DNA from: a virus | Lineage: Duplodnaviria > Caudoviricetes | Length of the DNA: 64,000 nucleotides | Strand: one strand, 5' to 3' | IMG/VR virus record: IMGVR_UViG_3300049298_000033 | Location: 1 to 64,000 of that record | Part shown: positions 35,285-49,758 of the stretch, in pieces | How the letters are laid out: each line of letters begins with the position of its first letter | How positions within the stretch are numbered: the first letter of the stretch is position 1 | Notes under the pieces: model-generated | What the model saw: only the letters and a program-made list of their open reading frames with translations | Told to the model about the DNA's origin: nothing | Databases searched by the model: none | Translations under genes and position numbers: made by a program

Positions 35285-35721
35285 GCGAGATCACTGACTT
35301 CATCAAGGCTCAGTACGACCGCATCGAGAAGCGCGAGCACGGTCGCTACGTGGTCCGCTACCCGCTGAAGGCTCTCTGTCCGGTGTGTTCCGATCGGCCG
35401 GAAGGGTTCGAGAGCGGTCGCGTAGGCGTCGATGAGATTCGGCTAGATCCGTGTGGTCACGCGATCCCTAACGACCAGTTCGTGGAGTTGTACGCCGAGA
35501 GCAACCCGGACCTGTTTGTCCTCGCCGATATCGAGTCCAAGCGGCGGATCCTCAATAAGGTCGTGGATGAAGCCACCAGCCTTGACATGTCTGTCGACAA
35601 CGATCGCCGCGTCGGGCCTCGGGACGAAGTAGCCGGGCCGTACCTAGGCGACAAGCTGCTCCGTCTCCTCGCTGCTCCGTTCTCTGCCGAACCCGGCTAC
35701 GACGACAGGTGGGCGGCATGA
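35281..35721 (+). CDS. DUF6221-like protein
   Basis: ITDFIKA..VLADIESKRRI..LRLLAAPF..PGYDDRW. Confidence 0.7.
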   Translation: MSEITDFIKAQYDRIEKREHGRYVVRYPLKALCPVCSDRPEGFESGRVGVDEIRLDPCGHAIPNDQFVELYAESNPDLFVLADIESKRRILNKVVDEATSLDMSVDNDRRVGPRDEVAGPYLGDKLLRLLAAPFSAEPGYDDRWAA

Positions 35722-35927
35722 AGAGTGACGGCTTCATCTATAGTTCCCGCACGATGCGTGGGCGCCTGTCCCATCTGCTACGCGCCGTCGCCGACCGGAT
35801 CAATCCGAGCGTCTACGACTTCCATGAGTCCGAGGCAGATACTGAGGCCCGTAGGCGGATTTATCGAGACCTTGAACTGGACTTGCGAGCGAGCGAAGCG
35901 GCCCGACCGATCGGCCGGCGGCGCTGA
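35718..35927 (+). CDS. Hypothetical protein
   Basis: ATGA coupling. Confidence 0.5.
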   Translation: MKSDGFIYSSRTMRGRLSHLLRAVADRINPSVYDFHESEADTEARRRIYRDLELDLRASEAARPIGRRR

Positions 35928-36022
35928 ACGACTTCGGCTGGACGTAATCCACAGTCCGACGCGGTGTCTAGCAACTGTCAGCCCCTCAGAGAACAATGGT
36001 CTCCGTGACTTCCCAAGCGATC

Positions 36023-36151
36023 GTGATTGAGGACGGTTGCGTCCGCCCGCCCCGCCTAGACGAGCACCTCGTCCACCTGGAGGACGGCCGGTGGGTATGT
36101 GTCCTCGGCGAGCACGCAGGCATGGACTGCCAAGTGGACCTCGCGGCCTGA
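36023..36151 (+). CDS. Possible 42-aa Cys/His peptide
   Basis: MIEDGCVRPPRLDEHLVHLEDGRWVCVLGEHAGMDCQVDLAA; no clear RBS. Confidence 0.3.
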   Translation: MIEDGCVRPPRLDEHLVHLEDGRWVCVLGEHAGMDCQVDLAA

Positions 36152-36227
36152 CCGCTGAGACAGGTGTGTCGCAATTGGACAATGCGGCCACCTGCATGCA
36201 AAGATTCGAAACAACATCGAGATTTCT

Positions 36228-36262
36228 GCCTCCGCATCGCATCCGCGCGCGGGGGCTTTCGT
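36228..36262 (+). terminator. Terminator-like hairpin before HTH gene
   Basis: GCCTCCGC/GCGGGGGC followed by TTTCGT. Confidence 0.4.
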
Positions 36263-36279
36263 CATATCTGGGGGTGCTC

Positions 36280-36546
36280 ATGCTCCCCGCTTTCGATCGC
36301 ACGACAGCCGAAGCAGCAGCCGAACGTCTCGGCCGCGCACCCGGAACCATCCACTGCTGGGGCACCCGCTACCGCGCCCGCAAGCTCCGCATCCGTGGAC
36401 GCGTCTACTACGACTACCGGGATCTCGCGGTCATCGAACGCGAGCTCCGCCACGGCCATCCGGTCCCCGAGACCCCTGAAGCGCGTGCCGAGATCAGTCA
36501 GCGTTGCCCTCTGCGTGCCGCTGAGCGCCTCGCTGCCGCTGCATAA
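36280..36546 (+). CDS. HTH DNA-binding protein (MerR/Xis-like)
   Basis: TTAEAAAERLGRAPGTIHCW..RVYYDYRDL. Confidence 0.7.
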   Translation: MLPAFDRTTAEAAAERLGRAPGTIHCWGTRYRARKLRIRGRVYYDYRDLAVIERELRHGHPVPETPEARAEISQRCPLRAAERLAAAA

Positions 36547-36558
36547 CACCCCTTAGAC

Positions 36559-36773
36559 GCGCGCCCCGTCTTCTCGCGGAGACGGTGTGGCGCGCTGCCG
36601 GCGACGAGCCCCCCACCGTCTGGTCGCCGTGCCCCCTGATGGTTGGCGGCCCGGTCCTGTCTTGGGGAAGTCCAGGGCTGGGCCGTCAACCTGGCACTGT
36701 TCTCCCGGCCTGCTCTCGCCGCTCTTGGAAGTGGGGTCGGCGCGGAGCAGGCCGGGCACCACCCCACTTCCAA
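36559..36773 (+). ncRNA. Candidate structured RNA: four consecutive hairpins plus a 13-bp pseudoknot
   Basis: Stems at 36559-36595, 36599-36629, 36641-36691, 36704-36756; loop TTGGAAGTGGGGT complementary to ACCCCACTTCCAA at 36761-36773. Confidence 0.55.
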
Positions 36774-36792
36774 CAGGAATAGGAGCGACCGC

Positions 36793-37380
36793 ATGCATGA
36801 TCCGCTGGTCGTCGCATTCGAGATCAAGCGCCCATGGCCGCACCGCTACAAGGCCCAGATTGTCAACGGCCGCGAGATCCCAGCACGCCGCTACTGGCCA
36901 GAGCTGATCACGATCTGGCACCGTGAGCCCGGCGGCCATGACTCCGGTGACATCTGCAAGCACTACCGCCGCTACCAAAACGAAGCGGGGGAGTGGCAGA
37001 CCAAGGTTCTCCGAGGCTGGCGTTTCCACGCCCACCACTGGAAGATCCAGGTCCACTCGCTGCAAGCCCTTCGCCGTCGCCTCCTGACCCGCTGCGCCTG
37101 GTGCGGCGGACCCTCGCGCAAGGGCGACGTGGTGAACGTCTCCCACTCATGGGATGGCCCGCGCGGACGCTGGTGGCAAGGCGAACCCGGCCTGTACCAC
37201 CACGACTGTTCTGCGATCGATCTCGCACACGCCACCTGCATATGTGAACAGCCCGTACTGGAGTACAACGGCTACGGGCGCTGCGCCCGCTGCAACAACC
37301 AGCGCTCCTACGGAATGACGGCCGAGAACCTCGCTCGCGCTCGTGAGCTGAAGGCCATCCAGGCTGGCGCTCGGTCATGA
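36793..37380 (+). CDS. Trp/His/Cys-rich hypothetical protein
   Basis: AGGAG RBS; MHDP..AFEI.RPWP..TIWH.EP.G.DSG..C; CAWCG. Confidence 0.7.
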   Translation: MHDPLVVAFEIKRPWPHRYKAQIVNGREIPARRYWPELITIWHREPGGHDSGDICKHYRRYQNEAGEWQTKVLRGWRFHAHHWKIQVHSLQALRRRLLTRCAWCGGPSRKGDVVNVSHSWDGPRGRWWQGEPGLYHHDCSAIDLAHATCICEQPVLEYNGYGRCARCNNQRSYGMTAENLARARELKAIQAGARS

Positions 37381-37679
37381 GCGACACCCGCATCGTCCTG
37401 GTGAAGCCTGGCGACGTCCTCATGCTCGGCAACGTCACCCTCCCAGAGGACGAGGACGCCCTGGAGGCGTTCGACTCGGCGCTCCGCACGTTGAAGGACG
37501 CTCTCGGCCTGGAGCACGTGCTCGTGTTCGAGGACGACATCGACCTCGCAGTGAAGCCCGCGACGGAGATCCGCCACGAGGTGCACGTCCAGCAGGACTG
37601 GTCGCCGGAACAGCACGCTCTCGCATCCGCGGTGGAGCGGCAGCAGAACGCGATGTCGCGCGTCGGCCGGTTCAAGTAG
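37377..37679 (+). CDS. Hypothetical protein
   Basis: ATGA coupling; VKPGDVL. Confidence 0.6.
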   Translation: MSDTRIVLVKPGDVLMLGNVTLPEDEDALEAFDSALRTLKDALGLEHVLVFEDDIDLAVKPATEIRHEVHVQQDWSPEQHALASAVERQQNAMSRVGRFK

Positions 37680-38423: not shown

Positions 38424-38852
38424 ATGCCAGTCCTCCCAAGGAAACCCTGCACAGAACCAGGCTGCCCCGAACTGGTAGACAAACCCGGACCCTGCCAAGA
38501 CTGCAGGCGACAACGCCGACGCCAATCCGACCGAGACCGCGGCACCGCAGCCGAACGCGGATACACCGGACCACGATGGAACACAGCCCGCACAACCACC
38601 CTGCAGGATGACCCAACCTGCACCTGCCACAACCCCGACTGCGACGACCACGGACCCAACTGCTACCGGCCATCAACAGTCGCCGACCACCACCCCAAGA
38701 CCCGCAAACAACTCATAGCCGAAGGCATCACCAACCCCGACGACCCTCGATACCTTCGCGGACTTTGCAAGGCATGCCACGATCGGCACACCGCGGCCAC
38801 CACCCCCGGCGGCTGGAACAGCCACACAAAACCGCAGGTCATAGACCTATAG
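38424..38852 (+). CDS. Terminase-associated HNH endonuclease
   Basis: PCTEPGCPEL..RGTAAERGY..W..STVADH..LRGLCKACH..HT. Confidence 0.88.
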   Translation: MPVLPRKPCTEPGCPELVDKPGPCQDCRRQRRRQSDRDRGTAAERGYTGPRWNTARTTTLQDDPTCTCHNPDCDDHGPNCYRPSTVADHHPKTRKQLIAEGITNPDDPRYLRGLCKACHDRHTAATTPGGWNSHTKPQVIDL

Positions 38853-38930: not shown

Positions 38931-38956
38931 AGATGCCCCTTGACGGGGAGGTGTCC

Positions 38957-39415
38957 ATGGCCTCTACGTCGCCGCGTCCGGCTGCGCTGAAGCTGATTGA
39001 GGGGCGGTCGCCTGGCCGTGACTCGGGTGGCCGGCCGGTTAAGGAGCCGCCTCCGTTCAAGCGCCTGCCTCCGGAGCCTCCGGAGTGGCTTCCTGTTGAG
39101 GCTGCCGCGGAGTGGCGGCGGGTGGTGCCGGAGCTTGCACGGTTGGAGCTCGTCAAGGAGATCGATCGGGCATCGCTGACGGCGTATTGCCTGACGTGGG
39201 ATCGGCTGGTGACTGCGCAGCGGCAGATCGCGGATGACGGCCTGCTGCACACGAACTCGCAGGGCCGTACCCGGCATCCTGCTGTGGCGATCGTCGAGGC
39301 TGCTTCGAAGGAGTTGAGGGCGTGGGCTGCGGAGTTTGGTCTAACGCCTTCGAGTGAGCAGCGCGTAGGCGGGAAGGACGGCGGCGGGAATGGGGAGGAG
39401 AACCCGTTCGCCTGA
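38957..39415 (+). CDS. terS: Terminase small subunit (P27 family)
   Basis: LKLIEG, PPEWL, EWRRV, D..L..YC, HPAV, EFGLTPSS. Confidence 0.92.
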   Translation: MASTSPRPAALKLIEGRSPGRDSGGRPVKEPPPFKRLPPEPPEWLPVEAAAEWRRVVPELARLELVKEIDRASLTAYCLTWDRLVTAQRQIADDGLLHTNSQGRTRHPAVAIVEAASKELRAWAAEFGLTPSSEQRVGGKDGGGNGEENPFA

Positions 39416-41153
39416 GCCGCCTAGGCTCACCGCGGACTATGCGGCTGAGCTGGACCGGCTGAAGATCTCACCGGAGGTTGGCTGGTACCTGAAGGCGCGG
39501 GGGATCCCGCTGCCGGACTGTCCGCCGACGTGGAAGACACCTGAGCCGCGGGACTTTCCAGGTGCCCGGTTCGATCCGGAGCGGGTCGACAAGGTCCTGA
39601 AGTCGTTCAACCTGCTGCGGCATACGCAGGGAGAGTGGGCCGGACGGCCGCTGAAGCCGGACCCGTGGCAGGTCGCTTACATCCTTGCGCCTGTGTACGG
39701 GTGGGTACACAAGAACAGTCGCGGTAAATGGGTGCGGATCATCCGCACCGAGTACGTCGACCTGTCGAGGAAGAACGGAAAGACCACGCTTGCCGGTGGT
39801 CAGGCGACTTACCTGACGTGCGCTGATGGTGAGGACGGCGCCCAAGTCATCGCTGCGGCGGCCGGTAGGGAACAGGCAGGCTACTGCTTCGCGCCGGTGA
39901 AGTTGATCGCGGAGAAGTCGCCGCACCTGTCGCCACACGTGAAGTGCACTATCAACAAGATCGTGCATAAGCGGACCGGCTCGTACTTCATGGTCGTGTC
40001 CAGCGTCGCTGATCTGCTGCACGGCGCGAACGTGCACGGCTCCGTCATCGACGAGTTGCATGTCCACAAATCGCGGGACCTCGTCGACGCACTCGAGACC
40101 GGTACGGGCGCCCGATCCCAACCGCTGATCATCATCATCACCACTCCTGATGACGGCCGGCGCGGCACAATCTACGCGGAGAAGCGGGAGTACTGCGAGC
40201 AACTGTCCCGGGGCGCGATCAGCGACCCGACCTTCTACGGGGTCATCTGGGCGGCGGCGGAGTCAGAGAAAGCTCTCAAGGAGCAGGGTCTGACGCCTTT
40301 CGATGAGGAGGCGTGGCGTCGAGCGAACCCGGGCTACGGGATCTCGCCGACGAAGGAGTTCCTCGAGGCGGAAGCGCGCAAGGCGCGCCAGTCACCAGCG
40401 AACCTGTCGCGGTTCCTACGGCTACATCTTGGGATCCGCACGAAGCAGGCGAAGCGGTACATCACCTTGGACGTGTGGGACCGTAACGCCAGCCTCGTCG
40501 ATGAGCAGGGATTGAGAGGGCGTCTAGCGTTCGGCGGTTTGGACCTTTCACGCACGCATGACCTGACGGCACTGGCGTGGCTGTTTCCGAAGGACGGCGA
40601 GTACGAAGCGGTCTGGCGGCTTTGGGTACCCGAAGCGCGGATGGACGATCTGAACAAGCGCACTGCTGGTTCCGCTGATGTTTGGCGCCGCGACGGCTGG
40701 CTCACGGTGACCGACGGGAACGTCATCGACTATGAGGTAGTTAAGAAGCAGATGCGCGCCGATCTGGCTGTGTTCCAGGCGAAAGAGATCGGCTACGACC
40801 GGTGGAACGCGACGCAGCTCGTCACTGACATGACCGAAGAGGGCGCCCCGATGGTGCCAATCGGCCAGGGCTACCAGTCGATGTCTGCGCCACTGAAAGA
40901 GCTATTGACGTTGCTGCTCCGCGGTACGCCACAGCGTCCGGTGCTCCGGCATGGCGGGAACCCGGTGATGCGGTGGATGGTCGACAACCTTGCGGTGTCA
41001 ATGGATGCGGCAGGGAACGTGAAGCCGGACAAGGAGAAGGCCGGCGACAACATCGATGGGTTCTCGGCGGCGGTGACGGCGTTGGCGCGGGCGATGCTGC
41101 ACAAACCACCCCGGAAGTCGGCGTATGAGGACCACGACCTGCAGGTCGTATGA
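39390..41153 (+). CDS. terL: Terminase large subunit
   Basis: PWQ, RKNGKT, VIDELH, ANPG, GLDLS, YDRWNA, IDG. Confidence 0.96.
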   Translation: MGRRTRSPEPPRLTADYAAELDRLKISPEVGWYLKARGIPLPDCPPTWKTPEPRDFPGARFDPERVDKVLKSFNLLRHTQGEWAGRPLKPDPWQVAYILAPVYGWVHKNSRGKWVRIIRTEYVDLSRKNGKTTLAGGQATYLTCADGEDGAQVIAAAAGREQAGYCFAPVKLIAEKSPHLSPHVKCTINKIVHKRTGSYFMVVSSVADLLHGANVHGSVIDELHVHKSRDLVDALETGTGARSQPLIIIITTPDDGRRGTIYAEKREYCEQLSRGAISDPTFYGVIWAAAESEKALKEQGLTPFDEEAWRRANPGYGISPTKEFLEAEARKARQSPANLSRFLRLHLGIRTKQAKRYITLDVWDRNASLVDEQGLRGRLAFGGLDLSRTHDLTALAWLFPKDGEYEAVWRLWVPEARMDDLNKRTAGSADVWRRDGWLTVTDGNVIDYEVVKKQMRADLAVFQAKEIGYDRWNATQLVTDMTEEGAPMVPIGQGYQSMSAPLKELLTLLLRGTPQRPVLRHGGNPVMRWMVDNLAVSMDAAGNVKPDKEKAGDNIDGFSAAVTALARAMLHKPPRKSAYEDHDLQVV

Positions 41154-46673: not shown

Positions 46674-47098
46674 CATTGCTGATCACTTCGGGAGGTGCGC
46701 GCTGCCCGCTGTGTGGCCAGTCCGGCCATGCGTGCGGGCCGCGCACCTCCCACACACCAGTGGACTGGCCACCAGAGGAGGCTGCCGTGGCAGGAGAACT
46801 CAAGGTCTACGACGTGGAGATCCACGGTACGAAGACGCAGATGAAGCTAACGGCTGAGCATGCGAAGCGGATGGGCGGCACCTCTGTGACGTCAGCTCCG
46901 CAGCTCGCTGCGCAAGATGCCGACGACCCCACGGAAGGCGAGAAGTCCACCAGGACGCAGGACGCCGAAGAGGCCGATGCGGTCGGCTCGCAGGAGCCCG
47001 AGGAGGCTTCCGAGGCCGGGCAGAAGGCGGCACCTGCCCGGTCGAAGGCACGGACGGCCCGGAACAAGGCGCGGACCGCGTCCAACAAGGACGGGTGA
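46670..47098 (+). CDS. Hypothetical head-region protein
   Basis: YDVEI.G..T.MKL; alternative start at 46787 with GAGGAGG. Confidence 0.6.
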   Translation: MTLLITSGGARCPLCGQSGHACGPRTSHTPVDWPPEEAAVAGELKVYDVEIHGTKTQMKLTAEHAKRMGGTSVTSAPQLAAQDADDPTEGEKSTRTQDAEEADAVGSQEPEEASEAGQKAAPARSKARTARNKARTASNKDG

Positions 47099-49701: not shown

Positions 49702-49758
49702 GTCACGGCGGCCGGTAACCCGGGCGGGCGGCCGGCCGCCGTGACCCTAACGCCCGCC
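49702..49758 (+). other. Hairpin with H-type pseudoknot potential
   Basis: 14-bp stem 49702-15/49732-45; loop GGCGGGCG pairs with CGCCCGCC at 49751-58. Confidence 0.55.

Follow-up and report, generated by a model that had tools for sequence, protein, structure and literature searches.

What is encoded in the 246-nucleotide (nt) non-coding gap at positions 36547-36792 of the provirus record IMGVR_UViG_3300049298_000033, between a small MerR-like helix-turn-helix (HTH) gene and the gene of a 195-amino-acid (aa) protein, and what might it do to the genes around it? The gap lies in the first 64,000 nt of this 94.5-kb IMG/VR record (G+C about 65%), the stretch analysed here and called the window throughout, in which nearly all genes are on the + strand. 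To our knowledge, the switch from early to packaging and structural genes in temperate phages of high-GC Actinomycetota is poorly understood, and we know of no cis-acting RNA control element described for these phages. Our analysis revealed that the gap encodes a conserved, folded sense-strand RNA, referred to below as the element, which is inherited only with the upstream HTH gene and not with the downstream gene of the 195-aa protein.

The + strand of the gap (36547-36800) folds with a minimum free energy (MFE) of -141.2 kcal/mol (z = -4.9), a value that none of 200 shuffled sequences attained, and the opposite strand over the same region gave z = -2.0. A first, sequence-only reading of the window had described four adjacent stems filling the gap, and all four are present in the sequence and agree with the MFE fold. 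The element, all parts of which lie on the + strand, opens with a conserved 5' flank (36547-36558), a C-run then TTAGAC, that begins at the HTH stop codon. Hairpin H1 (36559-36595) is followed by H2 (36597-36632), which has a 6-bp core stem (36600-36605 with 36623-36628), a C6 loop and, in that C-rich loop (CCCCCC..GT), a conserved C-run. The long hairpin H3 (36641-36691), with 19-22 bp and a GGGG apical loop, and the second long hairpin H4 (36703-36757), with about 22 bp and the apex TTGGAAGTGGGGT at 36725-36737, come next; H4 appears both in the MFE fold and as an inverted repeat. A C-rich 3' tail segment (36761-36773), the candidate pseudoknot or kissing partner of the H4 apex, runs into a weak mini-hairpin, TTCC/AACA/GGAA (36768-36779), which in the MFE fold overlaps both that segment and the first run of purines ahead of the Shine-Dalgarno (SD) sequence. 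The SD AGGAG (36781-36785) and the start codon ATG at 36793, together 36781-36795, belong to the Cys/His-rich 195-aa gene (36793-37380), which lies directly downstream of the element. H3 contains 19 contiguous pairs, three of them G.U, and up to 22 pairs in the MFE fold; this confirms the earlier count of 19 pairs with three G-U, and the preference for RNA of the + strand drawn from it agrees with the difference in z between the strands. For stability, H3 and H4 rank in the top five among 60-nt hairpins of the whole 94.5-kb record, and the motif CTTGG(G)GAAGT was not enriched in the rest of the window.

Relatives of the element were sought with two covariance models: R1, built from three sequences (the window, L093 and L090), and R2, rebuilt from eight. 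R1 detected loci L119, L112, L106, L103, L123 and L115 immediately past the HTH stop codon, with matches spanning the whole model save for a partial one in L123, and R2 additionally found L133, L137, L146, L148, L149 and L150, its matches numbering 15 or more; members outside the seed have E values of 1e-4 to 5e-8. The R2 match in the window, itself a seed sequence, covers 36549-36700 with 133.5 bits, just behind the HTH stop codon that ends at 36546. In every member the element starts at most about 25 nt past the stop codon of a MerR-like HTH gene (protein family alignment A2), on the same strand.

Covariation in these homologous gaps follows the proposed stems. Standard pairs fill 95.4% of the cells in an alignment of 15 sequences (A11), against 69.9 +/- 1.4% after shuffling, and changes on both sides occur in 35 of the 43 pairs (21.4 +/- 2.2 shuffled, 9-17 in slid controls), figures that come from related sequences in an alignment fitted to the model. 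Double-change cells number 121 versus 37 in shuffled alignments. The strongest signal comes from H3 (helix 5), which is 99% paired with compensatory changes in 16 of 16 pairs; H1 (helices 1 and 2) is 100% and 89% paired with 10 of 15 pairs compensatory, and H2 (helices 3 and 4) is 91% paired with 9 of 12. The same alignment holds 44 G.U and U.G cells against 3 A.C and C.A cells and, because this asymmetry is joined by a constant orientation of the C- and G-rich loops, we take the conserved object to be a sense-strand RNA rather than duplex DNA. The z of the sense strand was the more negative one in seven of nine homologous loci; raw comparison of strand MFE values and G.U counts from the MFE folds did not discriminate.

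The strand asymmetry bears directly on the idea of a site that works at the DNA level, be it an origin, a site of packaging or recombination, or an operator or cruciform recognised by the HTH protein. Such a site would fit the palindromic core GGCCCGG...CCGGGCC that the base of the long hairpin keeps in many members, and the partner gene does encode a DNA-binding fold. It is nevertheless very improbable, given the excess of G.U over A.C cells, the fixed loop orientation and the better sense-strand z; the spacer between the would-be half-sites is moreover self-complementary and covarying, which an operator in double-stranded DNA would not need, and cos is probably situated at the HNH-TerS-TerL genes, 1.6-2.6 kb further on.

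Members of the family share one order from 5' to 3'. The HTH stop codon is followed by a C-run with TWRAYC (CCCC-TWRAYC stands before H1 in nearly all members of alignment A10), H1, H2 with its CCCC..GT loop, a CCCAC-like linker, a long hairpin that has 19-24 bp and the apex GGGG(G)T, and often a second long hairpin, again after CCCC-TWRAYC; at the 3' end, the tail contains one C-run or two and leads into a (T/C)(G/A)GGAGA-type SD and the start codon. The layout of four hairpins plus tail is found as well in L119, L135, L137, L146 and L148, with the second long G-loop hairpin in the same place, and the four-hairpin form of the window is the typical full form of the family. Duplication of modular units is part of the evolution of these RNAs. 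L103 (1182-1479, - strand) and L133 (1380-1680) carry the three-hairpin unit duplicated in tandem, so that the SD is preceded by six hairpins; in five other loci and the window the doubling is confined to the long hairpin. A subgroup (L091, L092, L094-L097) differs in H1, whose loop reads GCTCACA, and has one more short hairpin while keeping the C-loop hairpin and the long G-loop hairpin.

With which neighbour, then, does the element travel? The loci fetched for close HTH homologues (L090-L097, including contig NZ_SMKU01000002.1 of the cultured lysogen Actinomadura rubrisoli H3C3, with the cassette near 27.9 kb) each continue, on the same strand, with 150-300 nt of multi-hairpin DNA with C-rich linkers. 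Of the 50 HTH loci inspected, about one third have the element; where it is missing, the next gene follows within about 10-30 nt or is convergent. A scan of 151 whole genomes of 3-12 Mb with R2 returned five matches, each directly 3' of an HTH gene ending in AA, four at known HTH loci and the fifth beside a distant HTH gene that the protein search had missed. Since whole-genome scans reveal it too, the association of the element with the HTH gene is independent of how the loci were collected. The downstream gene behaves differently: neither blastn nor nhmmer found a copy of the element in about 70 loci (L002-L081) with a homologue of that gene, which in these element-less loci mostly overlaps its upstream neighbour by 1-16 nt. 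A DNA search of the phage collection likewise matched the downstream gene and not the element. Exact-pattern scans of the viral contig collection with two loop motifs and the pseudoknot arms gave no matches, and DNA BLAST of the element in five related genomes produced short GC-rich noise only. The element-bearing loci come from prophages of Actinomadura-like soil bacteria (Streptosporangiales) and from metagenomes, and the genes that follow the element vary, comprising small membrane proteins, the MKVYLATSG family, glycosyltransferases, TnpB and the 195-aa protein. Despite these different downstream genes, the element in relatives ends with the same (T/C)(G/A)GGAGA-type SD; because the genes behind it differ so widely, the SD has to be counted as part of the element, not of the cargo gene.

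The second feature in need of explanation is the complementarity between the last apex and the tail. The H4 loop (36725-36737) perfectly complements 36761-36773 over 13 nt, an extended match reaches 16 nt at 94%, and in the window the complement stops 8 nt before the AGGAG SD. The record contains 17 hairpins whose perfect stem reaches 10 bp or more, and of their apex-to-3'-flank matches this one is the longest; in 14 of these hairpins the background does not exceed 6 nt; the exact loop complement reported earlier just before the ribosome-binding site (RBS) is thereby confirmed. As alignments of all members made with MAFFT only were too poor for RNAalifold, the relatives were compared in 21 non-redundant loci by a permutation test, which scored how long a perfect complement the last apical region finds in the 55-nt tail of the same locus. 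Cognate complements averaged 6.57 nt against 5.38 +/- 0.21 nt with the tails swapped among loci, and none of 20,000 permutations was as high (p = 5e-5 when the window locus was left out). The apex/tail pairs covary in the flanks of the G-run, as in GGGGGTC/GACCCCC, GGGGGTTG/CAACCCCC, GGGGGTG/CACCCCC, GGGGGTAG/CTACCCCC, AAGGGGTT/AACCCCTT and AGGGCCG/CGGCCCT, so that pairing of loop and tail beside the RBS recurs in relatives with compensatory changes. A C-rich tail complementary to the last apical loop stands 0-12 nt before a co-directional SD in 16 of the 21 members, not in group B.

The form of this contact is less simple than the perfect 13-bp pseudoknot that had been proposed. Its complementarity stands; the full classical H-type form, in which all 13 pairs would coexist with H4 in the window, is geometrically implausible, because loops L1 and L3 would have 4 nt each against a stem 2 of 13 bp and a stem 1 of about 17 bp. 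For some relatives the fold itself offers a way out. In L102, L149, L103, L133 and L112 the partner C-run forms the loop of a mini-hairpin of 4-5 bp whose 3' arm is the SD or abuts it, with stems that differ from locus to locus (CTCC/GGAG, CCTCC/GGAGG, CTCCA/TGGAG, TCCAA/TTGGA, CACAG/CTGTG), and a C-run presented in a loop implies a kissing-loop geometry, so the steric problem is gone in those relatives. The docking segment of the window overlaps the weak TTCC/GGAA mini-hairpin.

Two other pairings had been suggested for the element. An alternative pairing of H1 with H2, AGACGGTG/CACCGTCT, exists in the window; its conservation does not hold, as relatives offer 3-7 nt (permutation p about 0.1), and it was rejected as a conserved switch, being private to this genome. 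The complement of the H3 loop with one bulge, GACTTCCCAAG at 36007-36017, is present in the sequence as claimed. It sits in a 51-aa open reading frame that precedes the promoter-like region in front of the HTH gene and, by that position, would not be on the transcript of the element if that promoter is used.

How might an RNA of this kind act? Tentatively, we favour a cis-acting intercistronic leader that would exert control at the level of translation by docking of apex and tail at the SD, which seems to us quite possible, if still short of probable. A gate working in cis is suggested because transcription would run through the element, because the element ends in an SD and because it is inherited only with the HTH gene. 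Transcription of the downstream gene through the element is indicated in turn by the spacing, as 5-40 nt without promoter-like sequence separate the last hairpin from the SD. The model envisages a cassette, made up of a promoter-like region, a 5' untranslated region (5'-UTR) hairpin with U-tract, the MerR-like HTH gene, the structured RNA and the SD, that would head a phage gene block, with the element gating in cis, on a polycistronic transcript, between the HTH cistron and the downstream cistron or cistrons. The C-run 5' of the SD, often exposed in the loop of a 3-5-bp mini-hairpin that carries the SD in its 3' arm, would dock on the G-rich apex of the adjoining long hairpin through a kissing or partial pseudoknot contact, and this docking would fix the fold of the RBS region and thus set ribosome access, or let a factor set it. 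In the window, an unusually long docking segment of 13 nt may compete with both the H4 apex and the TTCC/GGAA mini-hairpin.

Several observations weigh against this translational leader. A translational gate directed purely at the downstream gene would not account for the exclusive linkage of the element to the HTH gene. Nested-fold ensembles leave the SD neither more open nor more closed than its surroundings (unpaired probability 0.31 versus 0.35 for the rest of the leader), which is why the translational reading has to draw on the docking geometry. That geometry is itself constrained, for it is implausible that the full 13-bp pseudoknot coexists with the full H4, and only a partial helix or a rearranged apex would fit. 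Group B (L092, L094-L097) has no 3' docking above background, G-runs and C-runs pair generically, with non-cognate matches averaging 5.4 nt, and a clear mini-hairpin occurs in no more than about half of the members. The covariation counts are to be taken as support and not as P-values, because common ancestry links the sequences and the model guided their alignment. Sequencing runs were searched for the sequence of the element, and no RNA run contained it. Soil-metagenome DNA contigs match the element identically where they cover it and, ending inside it, supply neither variants nor joints.

Four adjacent GC-rich hairpins that begin 12 nt past a stop codon would also be expected of a cluster of U-less ('I-shaped') terminators or attenuators, which would end or throttle the HTH unit and insulate the packaging-proximal genes from early transcription; the tandem three-hairpin units of L103 and L133 would make sense if termination efficiency matters. 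PMC8355165 reports hairpin clusters within 80 nt of stop codons as termination units that do not require poly-U, and U-less Rho-independent terminators in the early region of actinophage phiC31 are described by Ingham et al. 1995, as cited in PMC2602773. The element resembles both in its long, GC-rich, U-less hairpins clustered past a stop codon in an actinobacterial phage. Against such a function, no canonical intrinsic terminator (GC hairpin with U-tract) occurs in 36547-36792, and H1, H2, H3 and H4 are each without a U-tract, the bases right after them being TGCC, CCCC, TGGC and CACC. According to PMC3993855, mycobacterial RNA polymerase needs the U-tract for termination at hairpins and the recombinant enzyme fails at hairpins that lack it, even with NusA and NusG. 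Conserved C- and G-rich loops, the covarying apex-tail pairing, a conserved terminal SD and a single gene-family partner also set the element apart from those terminators, for which such loops, pairing and SD are not needed, and the downstream gene would be left without room for a promoter of its own. On balance we consider a terminator cluster unlikely.

A role in RNA processing or stability is suggested by the constancy of the long stem, which keeps its length at 19-24 bp while its sequence covaries. The perfect hairpins of 20-24 bp would then be RNase III-type sites or exonuclease barriers between the HTH mRNA and the downstream mRNA, much as in the T7 R sites or the lambda N leader and sib. 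Long hairpins of the same design occur elsewhere in the window, at 46690-46772 and 49702-49758, places typical for differential mRNA stability. The first of them follows the capsid/HNH module, and its apex complements the 3' flank before the next RBS over 11 nt (GTGGCCAGTCC/GGACTGGCCAC); the second lies in the gap before the tail-assembly and tape-measure genes, with an 8-nt complement between apex and 3' flank before the RBS (GGCGGGCG/CGCCCGCC). H1 and H2 with their conserved C-loops, as well as the loop-tail pairing, are foreign to known RNase III sites, and the determinants of actinobacterial RNase III are too poorly known for the putative cleavage to be scored. Processing therefore seems to us quite unlikely as the main function. 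Among known systems, E. coli rpsO/S15 and the T4 gene 32 leader are translational operators in which a pseudoknot or kissing contact adjoins the SD, and the lambda N leader and the T7 R sites are phage leaders processed by RNase III. What rpsO/S15, gene 32, lambda N and T7 R would have in common with the element is that tertiary pairing by the SD, or a long double-stranded RNA stem, sets translation or stability of the next cistron. They differ in that no homology exists and that the stems of the element are far longer and GC-richer, and, for rpsO/S15 and gene 32, in that the geometry of the window disallows a full classical H-type pseudoknot.

The C-rich loops of H1 and H2 and the C-runs in the linkers recall a further class of molecule. 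6C RNA (RF01066) and other actinobacterial small RNAs (sRNAs) carry runs of four to six C in hairpin loops, and C-rich hairpin loops are common to these RNAs and the element. It could accordingly be imagined that a trans-acting 6C-like sRNA is released from the 3' UTR of the HTH mRNA and targets G-rich SD regions of host or phage mRNAs. We regard this as highly improbable: neither the window (E <= 10) nor the 14 relatives scanned (E <= 0.1) gave a cmscan match to 6C or to any other sRNA family, there is no U-tract terminator to define a 3' end, and the element always abuts a co-directional SD. It is not stand-alone as 6C RNA is, and it has an additional long hairpin with a G-rich loop. More generally, a cmscan of positions 35500-37500 of the window against the 4227 models of Rfam 15 (E <= 10) yielded microRNA and snoRNA noise only, far below gathering scores, and the 14 homologous loci gave no match at E <= 0.1, in agreement with the earlier statement that the RNA belongs to no known family. 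Recent (2026) preprints on the discovery of non-coding elements contain no mention of MerR, Actinomadura or related terms. Our data define a candidate new RNA family among cis-acting phage leader RNAs, with a function that is likewise proposed as a candidate.

The partner gene of the element deserves attention of its own. The MerR-like HTH gene (36280-36546, + strand) encodes 88 aa, ends in Ala-Ala-stop and is followed at once by the element. Its product gave a weak MerR_1 match in Pfam (E 0.012), has 29 relatives of 55-80% identity, 14 of which are matched by phrog_2474 ('MerR-like transcriptional regulator') among the 29 family members, and has homologues in 62 of 401 sampled genomes of Streptosporangiales, the order of A. 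rubrisoli. A PDB sequence search with the family gave no meaningful match, and collection scans with the single HTH sequence gave no match, the family alignment A2 being needed. Almost every HTH protein of the family has this Ala-Ala end (L090-L133, including the distant member L133), and in the close subfamily conservation is higher over the last 35 residues (RELRHGHPVPATPEERAAISQRCPLRAAERLAxAA) than over the HTH. The Ala-Ala end may be read as an ssrA-like C-terminal degron, in which case the regulator would be unstable.

The region in front of the HTH gene is conserved as well. A promoter-like -10 region, TGCAAAGAT (36197-36205, + strand), was recognised by eye from the letters and is putative; TGCAAnAnT -10-like motifs occupy the same place in the 220 nt upstream of 16 HTH homologues, and a simple sigma-70 scan found nothing at 36197-36205. 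Downstream, a 5'-UTR GC hairpin (36228-36235 with 36249-36256) followed by TTT (36228-36259 in all, + strand) is terminator-like, and the SD of the HTH gene, GGGGGTG, lies at 36270-36276 on the same strand. In 12 aligned loci the inner stem varies, but conservation extends to the GCCCC/GGGGC base of the hairpin, to the TTTCGCATGTC behind it and to the SD GGGGGTG. The HTH genes of the family (L090-L123) present this arrangement regularly, with a -10-like motif, about 25 nt further on a GC hairpin (A)TGCCCC/GGGGCA, then TTTCGCATGTC, the SD GGGGGTG and the start codon. A terminator-like hairpin with U-tract in the 5' UTR implies that the cassette may itself be under attenuation or antitermination control.

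This arrangement brings to mind the antitermination modules of other temperate phages. HK022 putL and putR and lambda nutR are cis-acting phage antitermination RNAs, and nutR and putR stand after the small HTH gene cro. The element might correspond to them as a put/nut-like module, bound by RNA polymerase, the HTH protein or a host factor and rendering downstream transcription termination-resistant or protein-dependent. Consistent with this, it is tied to one protein gene whatever follows downstream, its loop sequences are conserved, it stands after a small HTH gene and downstream of a promoter-like region as in cro-nutR and cro-putR, and the cassette carries the terminator-like hairpin and U-tract just described. 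Both would be cis-transcribed phage hairpin RNAs, placed 3' of an HTH regulator gene and 5' of would-be targets, and inherited as a module. The differences are considerable, however. The element measures 150-250 nt with 3-6 hairpins instead of about 70 nt with two, its loop-tail pairing abuts an SD, and it resembles no Rfam family, with no match in Rfam 15. Winged HTH domains of the MerR-like type bind double-stranded DNA and no RNA-binding motif was found in the protein, the one canonical terminator-like hairpin that the cassette has precedes the element, and no downstream terminators were identified. We therefore judge a put/nut-like module to be decidedly unlikely.

A broader proposal would join the RNA and the HTH protein, which is probably unstable given its Ala-Ala end, in a self-contained control cassette for post-early actinophage genes, with the RNA bound by the HTH protein or by RNA polymerase. 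Promoter, 5'-UTR terminator, regulator gene and RNA would then amount to a device of the N/nut or put kind, or to a kissing-loop translational switch operated by a protein. We rate this combination as unlikely; if true, the self-contained HTH/RNA cassette would be the first RNA-based gate described in phages of Actinomycetota. Whatever its mode of action, an RNA family is now defined by a working covariance model, more than 20 members, a fixed HTH partner present in about 15% of the sampled Streptosporangiales genomes and a fixed SD end. A modular unit of regulator, RNA and SD placed before varied cargo could serve as an expression-control part in actinomycetes, and even if the element were only a cluster of terminators or stabilisers, it would show that loops and tertiary features of such elements can be under unusual constraint.

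As for the wider neighbourhood, the HNH endonuclease gene (38424-38852), the TerS gene (38933-39415) and the TerL gene (39390-41153) together follow 1.6-2.6 kb past the element, and a phrog_1568 DNA-binding protein is encoded 2.7 kb upstream of the gap; the placement of the element near the boundary of early and packaging genes, as first proposed, is a fair description for this genome. For the 195-aa protein, no Pfam or PHROG family was found. At E <= 0.001 it has about 600 homologues in metagenomes and in prophages of Actinomycetota, among them loci in phages of Streptomyces, Actinomadura, Nonomuraea and Arthrobacter, and its Cys, His and Trp columns are invariant. The homologous genes are usually translationally coupled to the preceding gene, and in Arthrobacter phages the homologue is annotated only as hypothetical, beside a RusA-like resolvase.

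Three records that carry the cassette are of very similar size, namely G006:C222 (L095/L098), G007 (L093) and G008 (L096), with 104,490, 105,082 and 104,772 bases, respectively. The TerL of the window had no homologue in the two of these related virus records that were searched, G007 and G008. In all three, the HTH gene lies 25-30 kb from one end, and they may represent complete genomes of one group of large temperate phages or phage-plasmids of Actinomadura-like hosts.

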